Source: an uncultured Candidatus Saccharibacteria bacterium (GTDB lineage: Bacteria; Patescibacteriota; Minisyncoccia; Phycocordibacterales; UBA1550). From it: a stretch of 50,930 nt of DNA. The translations under genes and the position numbers were made by a program. The notes under the pieces are model-generated. The model saw only the letters and a program-made list of their open reading frames with translations. It was not told the origin of the DNA and did not search any database. Each line of letters begins with the position of its first letter. Position 1 is the stretch's first letter. Below, piece by piece: positions 1 to 44,923 of this stretch. The stretch covers positions 1 through 50,930 of the forward strand of contig CAZXOE010000001.1 of NCBI GenBank assembly GCA_964642305.1, given 5' to 3'.

Positions 1-345
1 ACATCAAAAGGGACTAACAATCTTTTACGACAAGGCGCGACACCGATCACTTGTGCAAAAGATTTGCTTGAGGAAATTGGTTTCGTAGAACAAACCTTTG
101 GTTCGCTCGACCTCACTCTCTACACACCCGAGGAACAAGCGGTGCTTATACTATTGGATGAGCCACGCGAGCGCGAGGAAATCATTACATTGCTCGGCAT
201 ACCCCACCCTAAACCGTTCTCCGAACGGTCGGGCGAACCATCTAATGATGGTTTTAGCCCAGCACAAACACTTTCAATACTAACAGTGCTTGAGATTAAA
301 GGTGTAATTCAGGAAAGACTAGGGAAAATTAAGCTAGTGAAATAA
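1..345 (+). CDS. dprA: DNA-processing protein DprA/Smf, C-terminal part (5' end outside window)
   Basis: Frame 1 is open from base 1 (TSKGTNNLLRQGATPITCAKDLLEEIGF...). It matches the conserved GTNxLIxxGA segment and C-terminal winged-helix tail of DprA. Classic dprA-topA neighbourhood. Confidence 0.75.
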   Translation, partial: TSKGTNNLLRQGATPITCAKDLLEEIGFVEQTFGSLDLTLYTPEEQAVLILLDEPREREEIITLLGIPHPKPFSERSGEPSNDGFSPAQTLSILTVLEIKGVIQERLGKIKLVK

Positions 346-437
346 TCGGTCAATTTTTGCAAATTCTAAAATAGCCTTGTTTTATAAGGCTATAAATACA
401 CAGTAATAAAGAAAATTGTAAAAACCTACAAAATTAC

Positions 438-465
438 TTGACAAAAAATCTATATATGCTATACT
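438..465 (+). promoter_or_regulatory. sigma70-type promoter TTGACA-N16-(TGc)TATACT
   Basis: TTGACA at 438-443 and TATACT at 460-465, preceded by TGC (extended -10). Same ATATGCTATACT block as other strong promoters in this window. Confidence 0.6.
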
Positions 466-471
466 GGTACA

Positions 472-806
472 TAGATAGACAAGCACCTTCCATGACACGC
501 AGTGATCTAAACCGAAGTTCAAGTAGTGTAGGTTAGATTCGAAACGGTGTCATAGTTTGGCTCGAGATGGCTACAAAAAGTCTCAGGTGAACTTGCGGTA
601 ACATTGCTGTGGGAGCAAAAGAAATAACTCTTAATTTATATAAAATCTTAAGAGTCCCAGCCAACAGCTAGGAAAATAGCTGACTAGATTACGCTTACAG
701 GGTACAGCGAAAATTTAGTGAATCAATACTATTCCTCCCCTGGTCTCCCACGAGAGAGACTTAAGAAAGGAATAGGGCGGGCAATCCATGGATTGCCCGT
801 TTTTTT
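472..806 (+). ncRNA. Unclassified structured RNA, promoter-to-terminator unit of ~335 nt
   Basis: Bounded by the 438-465 promoter and a GC hairpin plus T7 run (778-806). No SD-preceded ORF longer than 14 codons. Helices readable by eye: 492-498/547-553, 504-513/531-540, 627-634/648-655, 665-670/677-682, 731-736/768-773, 742-747/756-761. Family not recognised. Confidence 0.45.
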
Positions 807-16054: not shown

Positions 16055-17744
16055 AATAGTTTAGCAAAAATTTCGTGATTTGCATAAACGGCGCTGAAAG
16101 TGTTTTTGAGGCATACGCTTCTCCTTGTGGATTTCTTACATCAAGATACACAATAAATTTTGGATCATATGAAGGAAAGTATCCGATAAAAGTGTGGAGA
16201 TAGTCCTTGTCTGAATATCCACCATCAAGAACGAGTTGGGCTGTTCCGGTCTTTGCGGCAATACTGTAACGCTCCATTTTGAGCGAACCTCCGAGAAGCG
16301 CTTTGTCTACGACCTCAGTGAGCATTCGTGAAATTTCCTCTGACGTTTCTTTTTTTATTACACGCTTTTCATTAGACGGCACAAACTCGCGAGCAGGTCC
16401 AAGACTATACTCTGTGCGTCTTACCACATGTGGAGTCACAAGCACTCCTCCGTTTGCGAGTGAGGCAAGCGCGCGTATGGTTGCAATAGGTGTCATTGAG
16501 ATACCCTGCCCGAATGACGCTGTCGCATACTCAATATCGCGCGGGCTTTCAAGGTTTCGTAAATCCCCCACGCTTTCATTTGGTAAATCAATCCCTGTCT
16601 CCTCGCCCAATCCAAAGGTTTTGAAATATTCTCTAAACTTTTCCCGTCCAAGACGCTCCATCACAAATATCGTGCCGGTGTTTAGAGACTGATTTAAAAT
16701 TTCTTGCACAGCCACTACCCCGCGCGCCTTGCCGTCAAAGTTTGCGATGCGTTTTGTGTTCACAATACGGAAACCTTTGTCGTCATATGTGGTGCTTGCG
16801 GTCACAACCCCAGCATCAATACCCGCTGCTATGGTAAGAGGCTTAACAATTGACCCCATTTCATACACGCCATCAACGAGTGGGTTTGAAAAAACGCGCT
16901 GATTTTTCTCCTTTGAAAAGTTGTTTGGGTCAAATGATGGCATAGTAGCCATTGCAAATATCTCGCCTGTTTTTGGATTCATAATAATACCGCTCGCGCT
17001 CACCGCATTATATTTTTTGAGAATATCATCCAACAAAACTCTTTCAAGAAATCCCTGCGCAGTGGGTTCTATTGTTGTCACCAAGTCCCCCTCACGACTA
17101 CGGTTGAAAAGTATAGTTGCTCCTGGTTTTAAAAATATGTCGGCAAAGAAATTTGAGGAGTCATTCTTTCCCGAGCGCGCAAGTGTTTCTTCATAGTAGC
17201 GCTCCAAACCATAGCGACCTGTGTGCGTGAGGTTTGTGCTTCCATCGGAACCAACAAAGCCCAGCACTTGAGCAGCGACTTTCCCACCTGGGTAAAAACG
17301 TTTATTATTTTTTTCTAAAATTATACCTTTATCATTGAGAGCGCGAATCTTCTCTGATGCTTCTTTTGATAAATGTTTTGCTATCTCCTCATACTGGTCA
17401 TCTTCACGGCTGGCGCGTGCAATAAAATTCGCGCGGTCAAATGTTACAAACCGAAGTAGTTTATCCGCAAGCTCCTCCTTGTTAGTAACCTTTGATGGAT
17501 CAACAACAAGGGTATAATCTGATACAACTGTCGCCGCAGAAATTTTACGACCATTTTTTTCAGAAAAAAATATCGTGCCTCTATCAAAAGTGCCAACGGA
17601 TGAAACTAGATACTTTGACTCCGCAAGATTTTGATAATATTCTCCGTGAGCTATTTGTATATATCCAAGCTTTGCAATCAAAAGAAGTGCTATCAAAAGC
17701 ACTCCTGTATTTAAGAACCAAACATTTTTTAGACGAGCATCCAT
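16032..17744 (-). CDS. ftsI: Penicillin-binding protein, division-type transpeptidase (FtsI/PBP3-like)
   Basis: N-terminal TM, SxxK (GSIVKP) and KTG (AAKTGTAQ). Positioned between ftsL-like and murF in the dcw cluster. Confidence 0.88.
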   Translation of the reverse strand: MDARLKNVWFLNTGVLLIALLLIAKLGYIQIAHGEYYQNLAESKYLVSSVGTFDRGTIFFSEKNGRKISAATVVSDYTLVVDPSKVTNKEELADKLLRFVTFDRANFIARASREDDQYEEIAKHLSKEASEKIRALNDKGIILEKNNKRFYPGGKVAAQVLGFVGSDGSTNLTHTGRYGLERYYEETLARSGKNDSSNFFADIFLKPGATILFNRSREGDLVTTIEPTAQGFLERVLLDDILKKYNAVSASGIIMNPKTGEIFAMATMPSFDPNNFSKEKNQRVFSNPLVDGVYEMGSIVKPLTIAAGIDAGVVTASTTYDDKGFRIVNTKRIANFDGKARGVVAVQEILNQSLNTGTIFVMERLGREKFREYFKTFGLGEETGIDLPNESVGDLRNLESPRDIEYATASFGQGISMTPIATIRALASLANGGVLVTPHVVRRTEYSLGPAREFVPSNEKRVIKKETSEEISRMLTEVVDKALLGGSLKMERYSIAAKTGTAQLVLDGGYSDKDYLHTFIGYFPSYDPKFIVYLDVRNPQGEAYASKTLSAPFMQITKFLLNYYEIPPDR

Positions 17745-20402: not shown

Positions 20403-20527
20403 TCACACCCCCGCATTGTCATTGCGAGTCGGTTATCTTCCAGGAAGCGAATTTGCTAATTCGCCGACGTGGCAATCTAGGGCTCTGGTTTGCTTCGTGC
20501 CTCGCAATGACGGATGCTGGGTGCGAG
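20403..20527. repeat. Palindromic extragenic element of the cattgcgag...ctcgcaatg type
   Basis: Arms are gcattgtcattgcgag (20413-20428) and ctcgcaatgacggatgc (20501-20517). Inner hairpin is gcgaatt-tgct-aattcgc. Contains cgtggcaatct. From memory, this sequence type is a widespread repeat often mistranslated as ...SLRGTKQ.../...ARNDG... peptides. Confidence 0.5.
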
Positions 20528-20539
20528 GAGATACTAAAA

Positions 20540-22012
20540 CTACTCTGACTCAGGCCTCATTGTTGGGAACAGCACAACCTCGCGGATATTGCGTGTGTTA
20601 GATAAAATCATAACTATGCGGTCAATACCGATACCAACTCCACCGGCTGGTGGTAAGCCATATTCTATTGCTTCCAAATAATCCTCATCTGAGGGTGACA
20701 CATCCCCTTCTCCACCCTTTTTCTTTATATCCTGCTCCTCGTAGCGAGCTTTTTGCTCAAGCGGGTCGTTCAATTCTGAAAATGCGTTCACGACTTCAAT
20801 GCCCGCAATAACAAGTTGGAAACGATCAATTAGTGACGGATCTTTTTCCTGTTTTTTTGCAAATGGTGAAAAACCTGCTGGATAATTGATGATGAAGGTT
20901 GGTTGAACTATCTTTGGACGACACGCCTTCTTGTAAATATTATCCATTATTTTTTCAATAGAATCGTGCGCTTCCACTTTTACACCAAATCGCTCAGATG
21001 CCAAACGCCAATCCTCGCGCGACATCGCTTCTGGACTATCTATTGACGCGTATCGTTTAAACAGATCCAAAAAAGAAACTATAGCGAATTTCTTTGAAAC
21101 ATCTATTGTGTCATCGCCAGATTTTATCTTCGTGCCTTTTAAAACATTTTTCACCAGAGCCTTTACGAGCTTCTCTACAAATTCCATCTGTGTAGTGCAG
21201 GTTTCGTATGATGCGTAAAATTCGAGCATCGTAAACTCTGGATTGTGAGTCATATCTATACCCTCGTTTCTAAAATTACGGCCGATCTCATACACGCGGG
21301 GGAATCCGCCTACTAAAAGCTTTTTCAAATAAAGCTCAGGCGCAATACGAAGATTTAAATCAATATCAAGAGCATTGTGATGTGTTTTAAAAGGCTCCGC
21401 GAGGGCTCCTCCAGCAAGAGATTGAAGAAGCGGGGTCTCTACCTCCATGTAATCCGCGTCATTCAAGAACTTGCGTATCTCTGTGATAATTTTTGAGCGT
21501 AGCTTGAAACGCGCGCGAACCTCCTCGGACATAAGCAGGTCTAAATAACGTTTTCGAAAACGCTCCTCCACATCCTGAAGCCCATGCCATTTGTCTGGAA
21601 GTGGTCGCAAACTTTTTGAAAGCATTTTCCACTCCTTAACCTCAAGCGTGCGCTCCTTGCGCTTTGTCATAAATAGAGTGCCTGTACAGTCTATAAAATC
21701 CCCAATATCAACAGTGTCCTGAAAAAGTGAGAACAGCTCCTGATCCATGTCATCACGTTTTAGCAAACCTTGAATCATTGCTCCGTCGTCCTCTATATTA
21801 AAGAATACAAGCGCTCCTTGCCCACGAATAGCCATCACGCGCCCAGCAAGAGTTATCTTTTTATTATCCTTAGAAAGTTTTGTAAACGACGAAAGAGCAT
21901 CTGCTACACAAAACGAGCGCTTTGTAGCGATCGGGTATGGAAGCATCCCCTTTTCTTTGAGAAGTTCAAGCTTCTTTAATCTTTCTGCGCGTATCTCTTC
22001 TAATGAAGCCAT
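20540..22012 (-). CDS. lysS: Lysine--tRNA ligase (class II)
   Basis: OB-fold N-domain plus class II motifs (FRNEGIDMTHNPEFTMLEFY, GGVGIGIDRIVM). Confidence 0.95.
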   Translation of the reverse strand: MASLEEIRAERLKKLELLKEKGMLPYPIATKRSFCVADALSSFTKLSKDNKKITLAGRVMAIRGQGALVFFNIEDDGAMIQGLLKRDDMDQELFSLFQDTVDIGDFIDCTGTLFMTKRKERTLEVKEWKMLSKSLRPLPDKWHGLQDVEERFRKRYLDLLMSEEVRARFKLRSKIITEIRKFLNDADYMEVETPLLQSLAGGALAEPFKTHHNALDIDLNLRIAPELYLKKLLVGGFPRVYEIGRNFRNEGIDMTHNPEFTMLEFYASYETCTTQMEFVEKLVKALVKNVLKGTKIKSGDDTIDVSKKFAIVSFLDLFKRYASIDSPEAMSREDWRLASERFGVKVEAHDSIEKIMDNIYKKACRPKIVQPTFIINYPAGFSPFAKKQEKDPSLIDRFQLVIAGIEVVNAFSELNDPLEQKARYEEQDIKKKGGEGDVSPSDEDYLEAIEYGLPPAGGVGIGIDRIVMILSNTRNIREVVLFPTMRPESE

Positions 22013-41530: not shown

Positions 41531-41541
41531 GCACATTGTAT

Positions 41542-41655
41542 TCCGCGGTAGCCGAATCAGCTGATTCTGAATCAGCAGGTTCACATCTTGGGTGAAAGCT
41601 TGGCCATAGACGTGGCAAACCAAATACTATCGTTTGAATTGAATCGAAATTAGAT
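41542..41655 (+). pseudogene. Degenerate tRNA-like unit 1 (tRNA-Asn 5' strand plus anticodon-arm-like hairpin with CUG)
   Basis: Begins with tccgcggtagc, as the real tRNA does. Has a gctga-ttCTGaa-tcagc hairpin (41560-41576) and aggttcacatcttgg resembling the T arm. No matching 3' acceptor strand. Confidence 0.5.
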
Positions 41656-41657
41656 AT

Positions 41658-41750
41658 TCCGCGGTAGCTCAGTGGCAATAGAAATTAGCCAAGCGACTGT
41701 TTAACAGTCATAATGAGCTCCGTAGTTTCAAGGTTACAATATAGACAAAT
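41658..41750 (+). pseudogene. Degenerate tRNA-Asn-like unit 2
   Basis: Shares tccgcggtagctcagtgg (18 nt) and aagcgactgtt (11 nt) with tRNA-Asn, plus cgtagtttcaaggttac versus cgtaggttcgatccctac. Contains insertions and has no 3' acceptor strand. Confidence 0.55.
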
Positions 41751-41752
41751 AT

Positions 41753-41824
41753 TCCGCGGTAGCTCAGTGGTAGAGCAAGCGACTGTTAATCGCTTGGTCG
41801 TAGGTTCGATCCCTACCCGCGGAG
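41753..41824 (+). tRNA. tRNA-Asn (anticodon GTT)
   Basis: Acceptor tccgcgg/ccgcgga, D arm gctc-agtggta-gagc, anticodon arm agcga-ctGTTaa-tcgct, T arm gtagg-ttcgatc-cctac, discriminator G. CCA is not encoded. Confidence 0.92.
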
Positions 41825-41828
41825 CAAT

Positions 41829-41868
41829 AAAAGTAATGACCCTCTTCCTGAGGGTCATTACTTTTATC
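41829..41868. terminator. Terminator after tRNA-Asn (16-bp stem)
   Basis: aaaagtaatgaccctc-ttcct-gagggtcattactttt. Confidence 0.75.
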
Positions 41869-41871
41869 TAG

Positions 41872-41901
41872 CTTCCGCGTGTGTAGGGATCGAACCGTAG
41901 G
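41872..41901 (-). repeat. Inverted relic of the tRNA-Asn 3' half
   Basis: The minus strand reads cctacggttcgatccctacacacgcggaag, versus tRNA gtaggttcgatccctacccgcggag. The T stem is no longer complementary. Confidence 0.6.
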
Positions 41902-42030
41902 CCCACCATTTTAAAGGAGTGCGACGACTATTAAAATGGATGGTCTCGACTGACAAGGAGAGGCGATCCCGTATATTGTCAACCAGGCGAGTCATCGACC
42001 CAAAGGGGCGATCCCGAATCAGCTGATTCG

Positions 42031-42577
42031 TGTCTTGGACATACATTTTTAAGCGTAAAAACATGTCTGGATCAGCAGAGCCACGTCTTGGACGCTGATT
42101 AGCAAATTTCGACCAAAACCCGCGGAGCAAAAATTGACAAATACAGTATATATGATATACTGTCTTTGTTCCTTTCAGGCCTACTTTTGTAGGTTCAAAC
42201 AATTGTTCAAGGAGAAAATGTAATGCCTAGAAGCCCTAGTATTAAATCTGCTCTGATGCCAGAAATCGACAAACTGCTTTCTGATATAGGAAACAAGTTT
42301 GTAGCGATTCCAGCGACGTCCTGCGAATGCGGAAAGCCAGTTGTTTTCACAGGCAAATCAAAAAAAATTACTTGTTCAAGGTGTCAAAACAAATGGGCAC
42401 TCACCGTTCAAGTGTCCCGCGTTGAATAAATCAGGGTTACACCGCCGAAGCAAAAACTGCTTCGGCGGTTTTTGTTTTCAAATAAATTCAAATATCCTCA
42501 TCTCCCTCTCAATCCCATTCCAATTCAAAGTTCCAAATCAGCAGATTTGTGTCTTGGACATAAACATTAGCAAATTC
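42031..42577 (+). repeat. 547-bp direct repeat, copy 1
   Basis: Base-for-base identical by eye to 43894-44440 (offset 1,863 bp). Contains a tRNA 3'-end-like 23-mer (42108-42130), promoter TTGACA(42134)-N16-TATACT(42156), the 68-aa ORF and its terminator (42441-42476). Confidence 0.85.
42223..42429 (+). CDS. 68-aa zinc-ribbon protein (CxC...CxxC), copy 1
   Basis: AAGGAGA SD lies 7 nt upstream. MPRSPSIKSALMPEIDKLLSDIGNKFVAIPATSCECGKPVVFTGKSKKITCSRCQNKWALTVQVSRVE. Has a strong promoter and its own terminator. Confidence 0.65.
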   Translation: MPRSPSIKSALMPEIDKLLSDIGNKFVAIPATSCECGKPVVFTGKSKKITCSRCQNKWALTVQVSRVE

Positions 42578-42931
42578 ACTTCTTTGACGCGAACTTGTGT
42601 ACCAGAGGAAGCCAGAGCGGTGCTTGCAATTTGTATGCGATATTATATAGTATACGTATCACCATGAAAGAGACCCTTATGCAGATATGTCTGCATCGGG
42701 GGCTTTTTTATTTACATAAAAAACGTAAATGTATCGTAAAAAGAGGGTATATTTACGTTTTCCTGCTTCCGGACCTCTAGAGAACGAGGAAACCAGGAAG
42801 GTTGTCGTTATTCTTGCATAAAATACCGCATTTCTATTACGATACTGACGATGTTTTCTACTTATCCTGGGTTGTGGATAACTTTTTACCCTTGCTTTCA
42901 ATAGTATATCGTATAATGGTATACTCTCAGC

Positions 42932-43062
42932 AGGAGTATGCAATAATAACTTACGTGGTGCTCTAGTGTTCCCACAGAGGATCTGTGACTTAAGCTAGAG
43001 ACTGACACTGCGTGAGACCGCTACTTCTAACAAAAGCCCGCATTCTAGGATGCGGTTTTTTG
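42932..43062 (+). ncRNA. Candidate ~130-nt small RNA
   Basis: Extended -10 TGgTATACT (42918-42925; TATAAT also at 42912-42917). Internal stems ctctag/ctagag and cacag/ctgtg. Terminator ccgcat-tctagg-atgcgg plus T7. No plausible ORF. Confidence 0.35.
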
Positions 43063-43105
43063 TTGCCTATTTGTTGAAGAATTCTGGACAACTTCTGACA
43101 CGTGC

Positions 43106-43195
43106 TTGACATCCTACCTTCGTTTGTTAATATGTAGATATCACGACGAAAAGGGGCCCGAACGGTTAATTACCTAAGGCCCCCTTTTCTTTTGC
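43106..43195 (+). ncRNA. Candidate short antisense RNA over the NYN gene 3' end (promoter included in span)
   Basis: TTGACA(43106)-N16-TAATAT(43128), then a hairpin aaaaggggcc...ggcccccttt plus a T-run. The hairpin contains the last NYN codons on the other strand. Confidence 0.3.
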
Positions 43196-43715
43196 CTATT
43201 TTTACCCGAACCTCTTCCTTGTCTAGGTTGTCGAAATACTTTCTAGTTATCTTTTTATACAAAGATGATGCACGTGATCCGTCAGGAAATAGTATTTTCT
43301 CAAACCTTCCCTCTTCAATCAAAAAATCAACAACGAGATTATAATCCCCGTCTCCTGACACAAGAATAATTTTCTCAAAGTCTTCCTTCTTATAAGTCTT
43401 CTTCATAATGTGAAAAACAATGTCAGTATCTACATTCCCTTTTTTTGTTCCAAGCATTGCAGGATTATGTTTTTTAAACATAAGCACAAAACCAGCATTT
43501 TGTATTTCCTCATATAAGTCCTGGTTCTCGTCTTGAACGAAACCGAGAAAATAGTATGCCTTACCGACATTATATTTTTGTTCCAGATACACACGAAAAC
43601 GAGCGAGGTCAATTTTCCATGGATCAACTTCTCGTTTAGCTGTGCCCATGTGTAGGTTCTGACCATCTATGAACGCATAATTTTTGCTTTCTTTATTCAT
43701 TGCCATTGTCTGCAT
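43170..43715 (-). CDS. NYN/LabA-like (PIN-like) ribonuclease domain protein
   Basis: YAFIDGQNL, KKGNVDTDI and ILVSGDGDY are the NYN acidic motifs. 181 aa with no other domain. The start is uncertain (43715, 43706 or 43700) and no clear SD is present. Confidence 0.75.
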   Translation of the reverse strand: MQTMAMNKESKNYAFIDGQNLHMGTAKREVDPWKIDLARFRVYLEQKYNVGKAYYFLGFVQDENQDLYEEIQNAGFVLMFKKHNPAMLGTKKGNVDTDIVFHIMKKTYKKEDFEKIILVSGDGDYNLVVDFLIEEGRFEKILFPDGSRASSLYKKITRKYFDNLDKEEVRVKIGKRKGGLR

Positions 43716-43893
43716 TCTAACATAACTACATCACTAATTTCTAATGATTCCCCTCAATAATCGCCAGTCGAACCTCGTCCCACATTCGGAGCATCAAAAC
43801 AAAAGATACACCCTCGGTGGTGTGTCTTTTGTTTTGACTCGATCCCGCGCGGTATGGTCGACCCAACCGAGCGATCCTGATTTAGCAAAATCA

Positions 43894-44440
43894 TGTCTTG
43901 GACATACATTTTTAAGCGTAAAAACATGTCTGGATCAGCAGAGCCACGTCTTGGACGCTGATTAGCAAATTTCGACCAAAACCCGCGGAGCAAAAATTGA
44001 CAAATACAGTATATATGATATACTGTCTTTGTTCCTTTCAGGCCTACTTTTGTAGGTTCAAACAATTGTTCAAGGAGAAAATGTAATGCCTAGAAGCCCT
44101 AGTATTAAATCTGCTCTGATGCCAGAAATCGACAAACTGCTTTCTGATATAGGAAACAAGTTTGTAGCGATTCCAGCGACGTCCTGCGAATGCGGAAAGC
44201 CAGTTGTTTTCACAGGCAAATCAAAAAAAATTACTTGTTCAAGGTGTCAAAACAAATGGGCACTCACCGTTCAAGTGTCCCGCGTTGAATAAATCAGGGT
44301 TACACCGCCGAAGCAAAAACTGCTTCGGCGGTTTTTGTTTTCAAATAAATTCAAATATCCTCATCTCCCTCTCAATCCCATTCCAATTCAAAGTTCCAAA
44401 TCAGCAGATTTGTGTCTTGGACATAAACATTAGCAAATTC
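43894..44440 (+). repeat. 547-bp direct repeat, copy 2
   Basis: Identical to 42031-42577. Homology resumes after a ~32-nt indel (gacgcgaacttgtgtac in both copies). Confidence 0.85.
44086..44292 (+). CDS. 68-aa zinc-ribbon protein, copy 2 (identical)
   Basis: Same sequence, SD, promoter and terminator as 42223-42429. Confidence 0.65.
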   Translation: MPRSPSIKSALMPEIDKLLSDIGNKFVAIPATSCECGKPVVFTGKSKKITCSRCQNKWALTVQVSRVE

Positions 44441-44554
44441 TGAAATAGTAATTTCACGGCCTGGCCGCAGAATCTTGGACGCGAACTTGTGTACTAGTGG
44501 GAGCCATTAAAAAGAGCTGTTGAATTTTCTGAATAAAATTAGTAACATTTAGTT

Positions 44555-44923
44555 ATGGAACTAACGCTGTTTTTTGCAAAATTTTGGGGTAGTCTCTTTA
44601 TGCTTCTTGGAGTGTTGTCTATTAGCGCAGGATTATTAAAAAGAGTGATTGGTTATACAGAAGACAAGACTATCACTATTTCCACCGGCTACATTACCAT
44701 GCTCTTGGGACTTGCAACGGTTGTAGCTCACAATGTCTGGGTGTGGGATTGGTCACTTGTCATTACCATTCTGGGCTGGTCTACGCTCATCAAAGGTGTT
44801 ATGAAAGTCGGCTTTCCTGATCAAATCAACAAAGGAGCACAAATGTTTAAGAGTCGGGCAAGGCTGTGGGGTGTTGCAATATTTTTAATCGGAGCATTTA
44901 TTTTCTGGATTGGAATTAAATAA
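44555..44923 (+). CDS. Hypothetical polytopic membrane protein (122 aa)
   Basis: Four hydrophobic segments. No family recognised. Confidence 0.55.
   Translation: MELTLFFAKFWGSLFMLLGVLSISAGLLKRVIGYTEDKTITISTGYITMLLGLATVVAHNVWVWDWSLVITILGWSTLIKGVMKVGFPDQINKGAQMFKSRARLWGVAIFLIGAFIFWIGIK

Follow-up and report, generated by a model that had tools for sequence, protein, structure and literature searches.

A tRNA-Asn 3' end in a Patescibacteria chromosome reads as a stack of small recombinase-less cassettes, one of them carrying a NYN nuclease gene and its convergent small RNA

The contig CAZXOE010000001.1 of an uncultured Candidatus Saccharibacteria bacterium (assembly GCA_964642305.1, positions 1 to 50,930, forward strand; hereafter the window, 51 kb in all) is a stretch of housekeeping genes, among them TopA, RelA, ParB, the division and cell wall (dcw) cluster, aminoacyl-tRNA synthetase (aaRS) genes, MreB and pyruvate kinase. 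Directly 3' of its tRNA-Asn gene, positions 41826-44506 read as a stack of small cassettes without a recombinase gene. The 3' end of the tRNA recurs, in degenerate form, at what appears to be the end of every cassette, and most cassettes seem also to carry a 27-nt double hairpin that we call M. Two long stretches of the stack are identical, and between them lies a gene for a NYN/LabA-like nuclease with a small RNA (sRNA) convergent on it. A first reading made from the letters alone (the sequence-only reading) had singled out this repeat and the nuclease gene. The next host gene starts at 44555, after the array. The array is laid out as follows; M* is a nested variant of M, U elements are described below, and loci from other genomes bear L numbers throughout.

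41753-41825 (+): tRNA-Asn (GTT), found by ARAGORN and by Rfam (tRNA, 72.2 bits); its last ~23 nt are copied repeatedly downstream
41826-42130: cassette e1, with terminator, inverted tRNA-end copy, M sites and direct tRNA-end copy
41829-41866 (+): terminator hairpin of the tRNA gene, read from the sequence
41870-42030 (+): 5' part of e1, read as a degenerate U-type element, ending with the M hairpin GAATCAGCTGATTCG
42031-42577 (+): perfect repeat, copy 1, with M sites, tRNA-end copy, promoter, 68-aa open reading frame (ORF) and terminator
42016-42040 (spanning the left end), 42069-42093 and 42535-42559 (+): M sites of copy 1
42108-42130 (+): tRNA-Asn 3'-end-like copy of copy 1; counterpart in copy 2 at 43971-43993
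42131-42614: cassette e2, with the zinc-ribbon gene, M and a tail ending GGAAGCCA
42134-42161 and 43997-44024 (+): promoter TTGACA-16-TATACT, 11/12 in a sigma-70-type promoter scan
42223-42429 and 44086-44292 (+): 68-aa CxC...CxxC zinc-ribbon ORF, AAGGAGA ribosome-binding site upstream
42441-42469 plus T-run to 42478 (+): strong terminator of the zinc-ribbon gene
42578-42614 (+): older-element tail, M box remnant ACTTCTTTGACGCG then ...GGAAGCCA; paralogue of 44472-44506 (88% match)
42615-43793: cassette e3, with two mini-RNAs (one of them the NYN-linked sRNA), a DUF3800-V RNA, the NYN gene and a tRNA-end copy
43767-43793 (+): degenerate copy of the tRNA-Asn T-arm and 3' end, GTCGAACCTCGTCCCACATTCGGAGCA, at the distal end of the conserved NYN cassette
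43794-43993: cassette e4, a short version of e1
43796-43893 (+): terminator hairpin and short 5' part of e4, ending with the M hairpin GATTTAGCAAAATCA
43894-44440 (+): perfect repeat, copy 2, internal features as in copy 1, shifted by +1863
43994-44506: cassette e5, like e2 with the M* insertion added and a tail ending GGGAGCCA
44441-44471 (+): M* (TGAAATAGTAATTTCA CGGCCTGGCCG), not in copy 1, exactly at the block edge
44472-44506 (+): older-element tail ATCTTGGACGCG...GGGAGCCA, the end of the array

No integrase, transposase, Rep or DUF3800 domain was detected among the window's ORFs (at least 110-140 aa, whole 51-kb window), which agrees with the sequence-only reading on the first three; an integrase is likewise missing from the related cassettes of L001 and L007.

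The perfect repeat is real. Base-by-base comparison of 42031-42577 with 43894-44440 gives a single run of 547 nt at 100% identity and an offset of 1,863 bp, just as had been read, and the two blocks are copies of a zinc-ribbon cassette. Beyond the left end, 41995-42030 and 43858-43893 remain ~75% identical; beyond the right end, past a 29-nt indel, 42581-42614 and 44473-44506 are 88% identical. The left edge of the run lies between the M hairpin GAATCAGCTGATTCG and the M box TGTCTTGGAC, and the right edge follows ATTAGCAAATTC directly before the M box remnant. Deleting the block and M* leaves flanks that can be aligned with each other over their whole length at ~78% identity, and in this alignment they read as two diverged copies of one older element. 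The block itself consists of the last 100 nt of e1 or e4 plus the first 447 nt of e2 or e5. A simple duplication of an attachment site is a poor description of a repeat that ends at M hairpin/box junctions on both sides and whose flanks align as older-element copies once it is removed. Whatever their origin, two perfect 547-bp direct repeats would permit RecA-type loop-out of a 1,863-bp circle.

The M motif has the consensus cTGAATCAGCAGATTCACGTCTTGGACGc and is made of two adjacent hairpins, GAATC-AGCA-GATTC and then CGTC-TTG-GACG. The exact pattern occurs in 94 stretches of the genome collection, against ~69 expected by chance in our own calculation, and ~40 of the 94 fall in one Patescibacteria clade, on up to 5-6 contigs per genome. 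All copies from the Candidate Phyla Radiation (CPR) form hairpins; the chance matches from other phyla do not. Moreover, variants such as GAATT-AGTA-AATTC / CGGC-TTG-GCCG alter both sides of both stems, and alignment and folding show that the two hairpins of M* both carry compensatory changes relative to the consensus and adopt the same two-hairpin fold. Judging from these paired changes, M is a real structured motif. It also occurs within long ORFs (up to 549 aa), always in the frame ESADSRLGR or, in antisense, PRRESAD:

Sense: L037, L046, L048, L049, L056, L070, L071, L076, L085
Antisense: L034, L051, L071

From its translation, the 549-aa M-bearing ORF of L048 looks like arginyl-tRNA synthetase.

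Complete copies of M occur at the tRNA-Asn locus alone within the window, and one variant lies at 20437-20462. We rejected M as a DNA-uptake sequence on this count (one locus and one variant in 51 kb); two matches to GTCTTGGAC, at 16397 and 16646, are ordinary codons of a penicillin-binding protein gene. We also set aside M as a fragment of a group I intron: the intron in the tRNA-Asn gene of L001 shows only a loose AATCAGCAG...CTTGG resemblance. A hairpin element of a third kind (GTCATTGCGAGGCACGAAGCAAACCAGAG ... CTCGCAATGAC; 20415-20515, minus strand) surrounds the variant at 20437-20462 (GAATTAGCAAATTCG CTTCCTGGAAG), just downstream of a class II aaRS gene ending at 20540. The outer repeat of this element also encloses M in L008, L012 and L062.

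The second recurrent feature of the array is the tRNA end. Positions 42108-42133 match tRNA-Asn 41805-41830 at 81% over 26 nt and in the same orientation, and the degenerate tRNA-Asn 3'-end copy reported for each repeat is thus present. Nearer to the gene, 41870-41896 (AGCTTCCGCGTGTGTAGGGATCGAACC) is close to the reverse complement of the tRNA-Asn 3' end, and the 5' part of e1 as a whole is built like the U elements that follow other tRNA genes in L024, L069, L090, L093 and L001. A tmRNA or tRNA pseudogene at 41870-42130 was rejected: ARAGORN finds none, and the minus strand cannot form a T-arm.

U elements, and the W elements that have another core, are 130-200 nt long and lie 3' of tRNA and tmRNA genes. 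The core is conserved whatever the tRNA. The ends vary with the adjoining tRNA (Arg, Phe, Gly, Ser, Asn, Trp or Tyr): the 5' end is the reverse complement of its last 17-20 nt with a constant bulged A, and the 3' end is a direct copy. In the long stem of the U core, compensatory changes are seen at 7 of 12 predicted pairs. U elements form tandem arrays after tmRNA in L057 and L017; W elements, which match tRNA-Trp and tRNA-Tyr, are tandem too.

U elements (~150-200 nt): L024 5590-5810; L069 (three copies); L090; L093; L084; L073; L075; L001 3078-3267 and 2115-2304
W elements (GAAAAGCTTTTG...CCAAAAGGTATACTGGT...): L112 3430-3571, 2298-2439 and 2108-2249; L142 1-440 and 1830-2050

Rfam searches with the repeat (E up to 5) and with U elements (E up to 0.5) returned only tRNA, tmRNA, DUF3800-V and chance microRNA-like matches to long hairpins. 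Among the tRNA genes of the fetched loci, which had been chosen via the M motif, 13 of 39 have a copy of their own end (at least 13 of the last 16 nt) within 330 nt downstream, and 0 of 39 have one upstream. The tRNA-linked recombination hotspot suggested by the sequence-only reading is supported, with tRNA 3'-end copies bounding the inserted DNA.

The 1.3 kb between the two blocks holds the following genes and signals.

42624-42713 (+): second mini-RNA candidate, with promoter TTGCAA-16-TATAGT, RNA ~42658-42713 starting AUCACC, and terminator
42917-42925 (+): extended -10-like TGgTATACT, read from the sequence
42932-43028 (+): DUF3800-V RNA, Rfam RF02964, 73.7 bits (gathering cut-off 37.4), E = 6e-15, model positions 1-96 matched
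43038-43062 (+): intrinsic terminator of the DUF3800-V RNA
43106-43193 (+): convergent sRNA unit, with promoter TTGACA-16-TAATAT at 43106-43133 and RNA ~43140-43193 (AUCACGACGAAAA, hairpin, U-run)
43170-43715 (-): NYN/LabA-like nuclease gene, encoding 181 aa; with a start at the second Met, as in L001, it would encode 176 aa

The nuclease was called correctly by the sequence-only reading. The protein matches the Pfam NYN family (PF01936) over residues 15-154 with E = 4.5e-15 and 56.9 bits (cut-off 24.2), and it matches the structure PDB 2qip at 1.4e-06. The motifs FIDGQN, NVDTD and SGDGD, where PIN-like acidic active-site residues were sought, are visible in both the translation and the 2qip alignment. 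PADLOC returned a weak, partial match to its 'NYN' model PDLC01154 (E = 0.0017, 15.8 bits). Because TAGAAT stands just upstream of the start codon, the mRNA may be leaderless.

The sRNA is ~54 nt long and antisense to the last codons of the NYN gene. It folds at -20.3 kcal/mol (z = -3.6), and no Rfam family covers it in the window or at the other NYN loci. The 20-mer ATCACGACGAAAAGGGGCCC at its start has exact matches in 16 species-representative genomes; 14 of the 16 record titles name CPR groups (Paceibacteria, Parcubacteria, Nomurabacteria, Uhrbacteria, Kaiserbacteria, Saccharibacteria, Patescibacteria), and the other two read 'uncultured Pseudomonadales' and 'uncultured bacterium'. Across 19 aligned loci, the 20-mer and the hairpin that follows it are almost invariant while the NYN protein drops to 55-71% identity. 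Apart from a -35/-10 pair, which 18 of the 19 have at constant distance, upstream DNA is unrelated from locus to locus. The convergent sRNA accompanies each NYN gene of the family (window, L001, L108, L112, L128-L142), and two loci (L130, L131) retain the sRNA without the NYN gene. The pairing, as predicted from these alignments, is widespread and not previously described. Within the window, the complement of the 5' 13 nt of the sRNA occurs only at the sRNA's own antisense site. Linkage, overlap and mobility suggest that the pair most likely has a toxin-antitoxin-like or defence role, in which the nuclease would be checked by an antisense or binding RNA.

The NYN cassette moves independently of its surroundings. 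The closest relative, L001/L102, is a groundwater Patescibacteria assembly syntenic with the window. Its NYN protein is 99% identical in amino acids, and nucleotide identity is 93.5% across a segment of 696 nt (window 43104-43799); the syntenic neighbours (pyk, ppiase and others) reach only 66-76%. The segment spans the -35 of the sRNA promoter, the NYN gene and the tRNA-like copy at 43767-43793, and homology ends just past that copy, at 43799. To judge from these identities, the NYN gene travels as mobile cargo, keeps the same RNA partner and forms with it a horizontally spreading module.

Three further observations concern the NYN loci of other genomes. L001 has a second, unrelated NYN/LabA-like gene (210 aa; 48-680, minus strand) 1.7 kb from its NYN cassette, with a GC-rich structured leader at its 5' side. 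The orthologous tRNA-Asn gene at L001/L102 3348-3594 (minus strand) carries a group I intron in its anticodon loop (73.2 bits in Rfam), which the tRNA-Asn gene of the window lacks. Finally, at L108 4557-4970, and also in L105-L107 and L109, about six tandem 69-nt repeats, each with a GC-rich hairpin, directly adjoin an NYN cassette of 73% identity on the side of its sRNA promoter.

The NYN cassette also sits between repeats in other genomes, and the repeats differ. In L001 it has a 190-nt U element on either side; the two are 100% identical and correspond to the tRNA-Asn of L001 itself. A 63%-identical NYN gene in L112, L117 and L119 lies beside tRNA-Trp between W elements; in L112 the bracket is 142 nt long and 93% identical, with a third W copy at 63%. 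Three W elements precede the NYN cassette in L142. The bracket in L133 (58 nt, 98% identical, 1380-1437 and 2320-2377 in oriented coordinates) is read as the 5' end of radA, the coding region of its N-terminal zinc ribbon. A radA-like ORF of full length begins with one of the 58-nt copies in L133, and a truncated 5' fragment begins with the other; the arrangement looks as though radA had taken up an element that rebuilt the gene's 5' end. Because the bracket recurs in L001, L112, L133 and L142, the layout is neither an accident of one assembly nor tied to the 547-bp sequence. The zero divergence in the window had been taken to imply a very recent event, ongoing conversion or an assembly artefact, and it had been set out beforehand that the same layout with ordinary divergence in other genomes would speak against a unique, very recent event. 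Such layouts, with unrelated repeats, are what we found.

The zinc-ribbon cassette has a separate history. Both copies contain what the sequence-only reading had listed: the promoter, near consensus and embedded in the palindrome ACAAATACAGTATATATGATATACTGTCTTTGT, the 68-aa ORF with its AAGGAGA Shine-Dalgarno sequence, and its own terminator. Among 5.8 billion proteins there is one homologue, 72% identical, on contig L007. That contig begins within a tRNA-Asn gene whose 3' end is identical to the window's, and the same promoter palindrome, 68-aa ORF and terminator follow at once. An M-like site with TACCCGCGGAG comes next, then a 198-aa gene and another M-like remnant with CCCGCGGAGA, and L007 carries CCCGCGGAG copies of the tRNA end. 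Between the window and L007, 17 codons of the ORF differ synonymously and 19 non-synonymously; most changes fall in third positions, an excess that marks the ORF as coding. Pfam and NCBIfam gave only sub-threshold zinc-ribbon matches for the protein, PADLOC gave nothing, and an AlphaFold2 model from the two-sequence alignment is unusable (mean pLDDT 48.8, pTM 0.27). We part with the idea of a zinc ribbon and a NYN nuclease acting as one module: the zinc-ribbon cassette stands alone after tRNA-Asn in L007, and the NYN gene occurs without a zinc ribbon in L001 and at ~30 other loci. Cassettes occur independently of one another in other genomes.

We propose, with a probability of about 0.5, that miniature cassettes accumulated one by one at the 3' end of tRNA-Asn, and that an enzyme encoded elsewhere exchanged them at M sites. 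The perfect block would be a mosaic cassette that came to lie on both sides of the NYN gene, and the NYN-sRNA pair a self-contained spreading module. Cassettes would enter as circles that recombine at tRNA-end or M sites, with catalysis by an enzyme encoded outside the array, and identical copies would arise through two insertions or through conversion limited by M sites. The NYN gene and its antisense sRNA would form a self-stabilising module of toxin-antitoxin or defence type, hence its spread. An M-site mechanism would give junctions that lose only the 547-bp block, with GATTCG rejoined to ACTTCTTTGAC.

Several points weigh against this proposal. The entry mechanism is conjecture throughout: no excised circle, empty site or recombinase was seen. 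A fully identical centre with diverged edges is equally expected from gene conversion between old duplicates, and RecA-mediated integration of a circle already carrying the repeat would give the same identity pattern; an assembly path error through the 547-bp repeat may also have occurred. The mobility of the zinc-ribbon cassette rests on two contexts, because there is only one other copy in 5.8 billion proteins, and the 39 tRNA genes were sampled through the M motif itself. Part of the sRNA hairpin doubles as coding sequence for the NYN C-terminus, so that the hairpin looks more conserved than it would on its own account, and both the toxicity of the nuclease and its antagonism by the sRNA are putative. 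The proposal and the three alternatives that follow are not fully exclusive.

A tentative alternative, the model of the sequence-only reading, is that a 1,863-bp circle made of the 547-bp block and 42578-43893 entered a resident block by homologous recombination of the Campbell type and can loop out again; we consider it unlikely. It explains why 547 nt are perfectly identical in a window without a recombinase and why all four outer sides are unique sequence. The brackets of other NYN cassettes also suit it, in that they consist of whatever the target holds (U, W or the radA 5' end), the trace expected of a circle that had picked up target sequence. However, the non-repeat part begins and ends with paralogues of the flanks of the chromosomal block, which means that in both partners the block must already have sat in an older element, at one and the same M junction; this is an extra step. 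The bracket also exists without the 547-bp block in L001 and L112. Nor does homologous recombination predict breakpoints that coincide with M junctions.

The homology that continues past the block on both sides, at 75-88%, would also follow if a ~620-bp unit had long ago been duplicated in tandem, the NYN cassette had entered between the units and ongoing gene conversion kept their interior identical; the three-copy series of L112, with its graded identity of 93% and 63%, looks much like such a history. We regard it as improbable in the window, where identity falls abruptly from 100% over 547 nt to ~78% within 35 nt, the 29-31-nt M* insertion lies exactly on the boundary, and the 5' parts of the two units differ greatly in length (~160 and ~55 nt). 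An assembly artefact, in which one chromosomal copy and a small circle or strain variant were threaded through the shared 547-bp repeat, is highly doubtful: the perfect repeat is longer than short reads, the source is apparently a metagenome-assembled genome and L001/L102 is a groundwater assembly, yet the same topology appears in independent assemblies (L112, L119, L117), one with 93%-identical repeats that assemble unambiguously, and all four junctions fit as M-site joints.

How does serial accretion at the tRNA-Asn 3' end compare with known systems? Insertion at a tRNA 3' end, units that each end in a copy of that end, tandem stacking and an array without integrase are all seen in tandem accretion at tRNA genes and in cis-mobilizable elements (CIMEs). 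Unlike those elements, the units here are tiny (~130 nt to 1.2 kb) and many are geneless, and U and W elements carry inverted as well as direct tRNA-end copies around a structured core that is the same at many tRNAs. As in an element of the tyrosine-integrase type, direct repeats of the tRNA 3' end are present (42108-42130, 43767-43793, 43971-43993 and the tails GGAAGCCA and GGGAGCCA); unlike such an element, neither the window nor the cassettes of L001 and L007 encode an integrase. Fixed terminal inverted repeats of the kind found in insertion sequences and miniature inverted-repeat transposable elements are not shared by U and W elements, whose ends change with the target tRNA.

Integrons, and clusters of attC sites lacking integron-integrases (CALINs), are the other close comparison. 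They too have one-gene or geneless cassettes split by a folded imperfect palindrome, duplicated cassettes and no local recombinase. The breakpoints here lie inside the folded site, and each site is therefore a hybrid of two cassettes, as in those arrays. However, M lacks R''/R' cores (RYYYAAC...GTTRRRY), the cassettes bear their own promoters and terminators, and the platform is a tRNA 3' end rather than attI; the window has no Phage_integrase match that could be IntI. Rickettsia palindromic elements and the Neisseria repeats dRS3 and NIME (neisserial intergenic mosaic elements) offer comparators for M. Like them, M is short and palindromic, keeps a single reading frame inside ORFs and flanks variable segments; unlike them, it is only 27 nt long and is restricted to one CPR clade.

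The NYN-sRNA pair, for its part, resembles the logic of type I and type III toxin-antitoxin systems in our comparison, and fits neither definition. The respective examples are txpA/RatA, whose antisense RNA overlaps the 3' end, and ToxIN, where an RNA inhibits an endoribonuclease. A compact nuclease gene with a strongly promoted small RNA that converges on it and overlaps its 3' end is the shared feature, as are horizontal spread and mobile contexts. Type I toxins, however, are small membrane peptides and NYN is a nuclease, and in type III systems the antitoxin consists of tandem repeats that precede the toxin.

All of this could belong to one undescribed cassette system of Patescibacteria that carries its address in the element. 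U and W elements, whether in RNA form or as imported single-stranded DNA, would form a stem that copies the 3' end of one tRNA or tmRNA; M would be the point of strand exchange; and an enzyme acting in trans would insert promoter-bearing mini-cassettes at tRNA ends, much as with integron attC or the folded attP of CTX phage. The NYN-sRNA pair would then be an addiction module or part of the machinery. We offer this by analogy and think it improbable.

CPR bacteria have tiny genomes with few recognised mobile elements. A nuclease gene and sRNA common to several CPR classes, in which 20 nt of RNA stay invariant while the protein falls to 55-71% identity, is a candidate for a new RNA-controlled nuclease module. 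Structured elements of 130-200 nt ending in copies of the adjoining tRNA's 3' end follow about a third of the tRNA genes examined, and a 27-nt double hairpin marks recombination breakpoints and also lies in frame inside housekeeping genes. If these prove to be one recombination system, they would constitute a new route of cassette exchange in CPR bacteria; if they do not, the locus would be a clean case of tRNA-linked islet accretion.

The remaining RNA candidates of e3 deserve mention. Small RNAs had been predicted between the two blocks, and Rfam, promoter/terminator scans and folding confirm them. The module had been called impossible to assign to any described system; one of its small RNAs belongs to the described family DUF3800-V, whose full model is matched at 42932-43028 with a score twice the gathering cut-off. 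An intrinsic terminator comes next, a feature shared with several DUF3800 motifs. DUF3800-V is an orphan RNA class known solely from its nearness to DUF3800 genes (Weinberg et al. 2017, PMC5737381); the DUF3800 protein has an RNase H-like fold and a role that is unknown (PMC10910872). This one stands next to a NYN gene, and no DUF3800 gene is found among the window's ORFs. We rejected DUF3800-V as the partner RNA of NYN: it is not beside any of ~40 other NYN loci, and is therefore best read as separate cargo. The second mini-RNA candidate (~42658-42713) folds at -23.3 kcal/mol (z = -5.1) and resembles the NYN-linked sRNA.

The one factual statement of the sequence-only reading that does not stand is the inverted pair of DnaA-box-like sequences in the same region, which reduces to a single perfect box, TTATCCACA, at 42873-42881 (minus strand). 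The window has two perfect boxes (0.35 expected), a number reached in 5 of 100 shuffles, and we rejected an origin on these grounds: the boxes are not significant and are only scattered in related loci. The perfect 9-mer does stand just 5' of cassette promoters at window 42873-42881, L108 4600, L136 5646 and L075 6312.

Upstream of the tRNA-Asn gene there are partial copies of its 5' half, at 41538-41600 and 41654-41710 in the window and at 3736-3660 in L001. The nearer copy (TCCGCGGTAGCTCAGTGG..AAGCGACTGTT) is kept in L001, where it bears that genome's own acceptor sequence, and the farther copy runs directly into M motifs.

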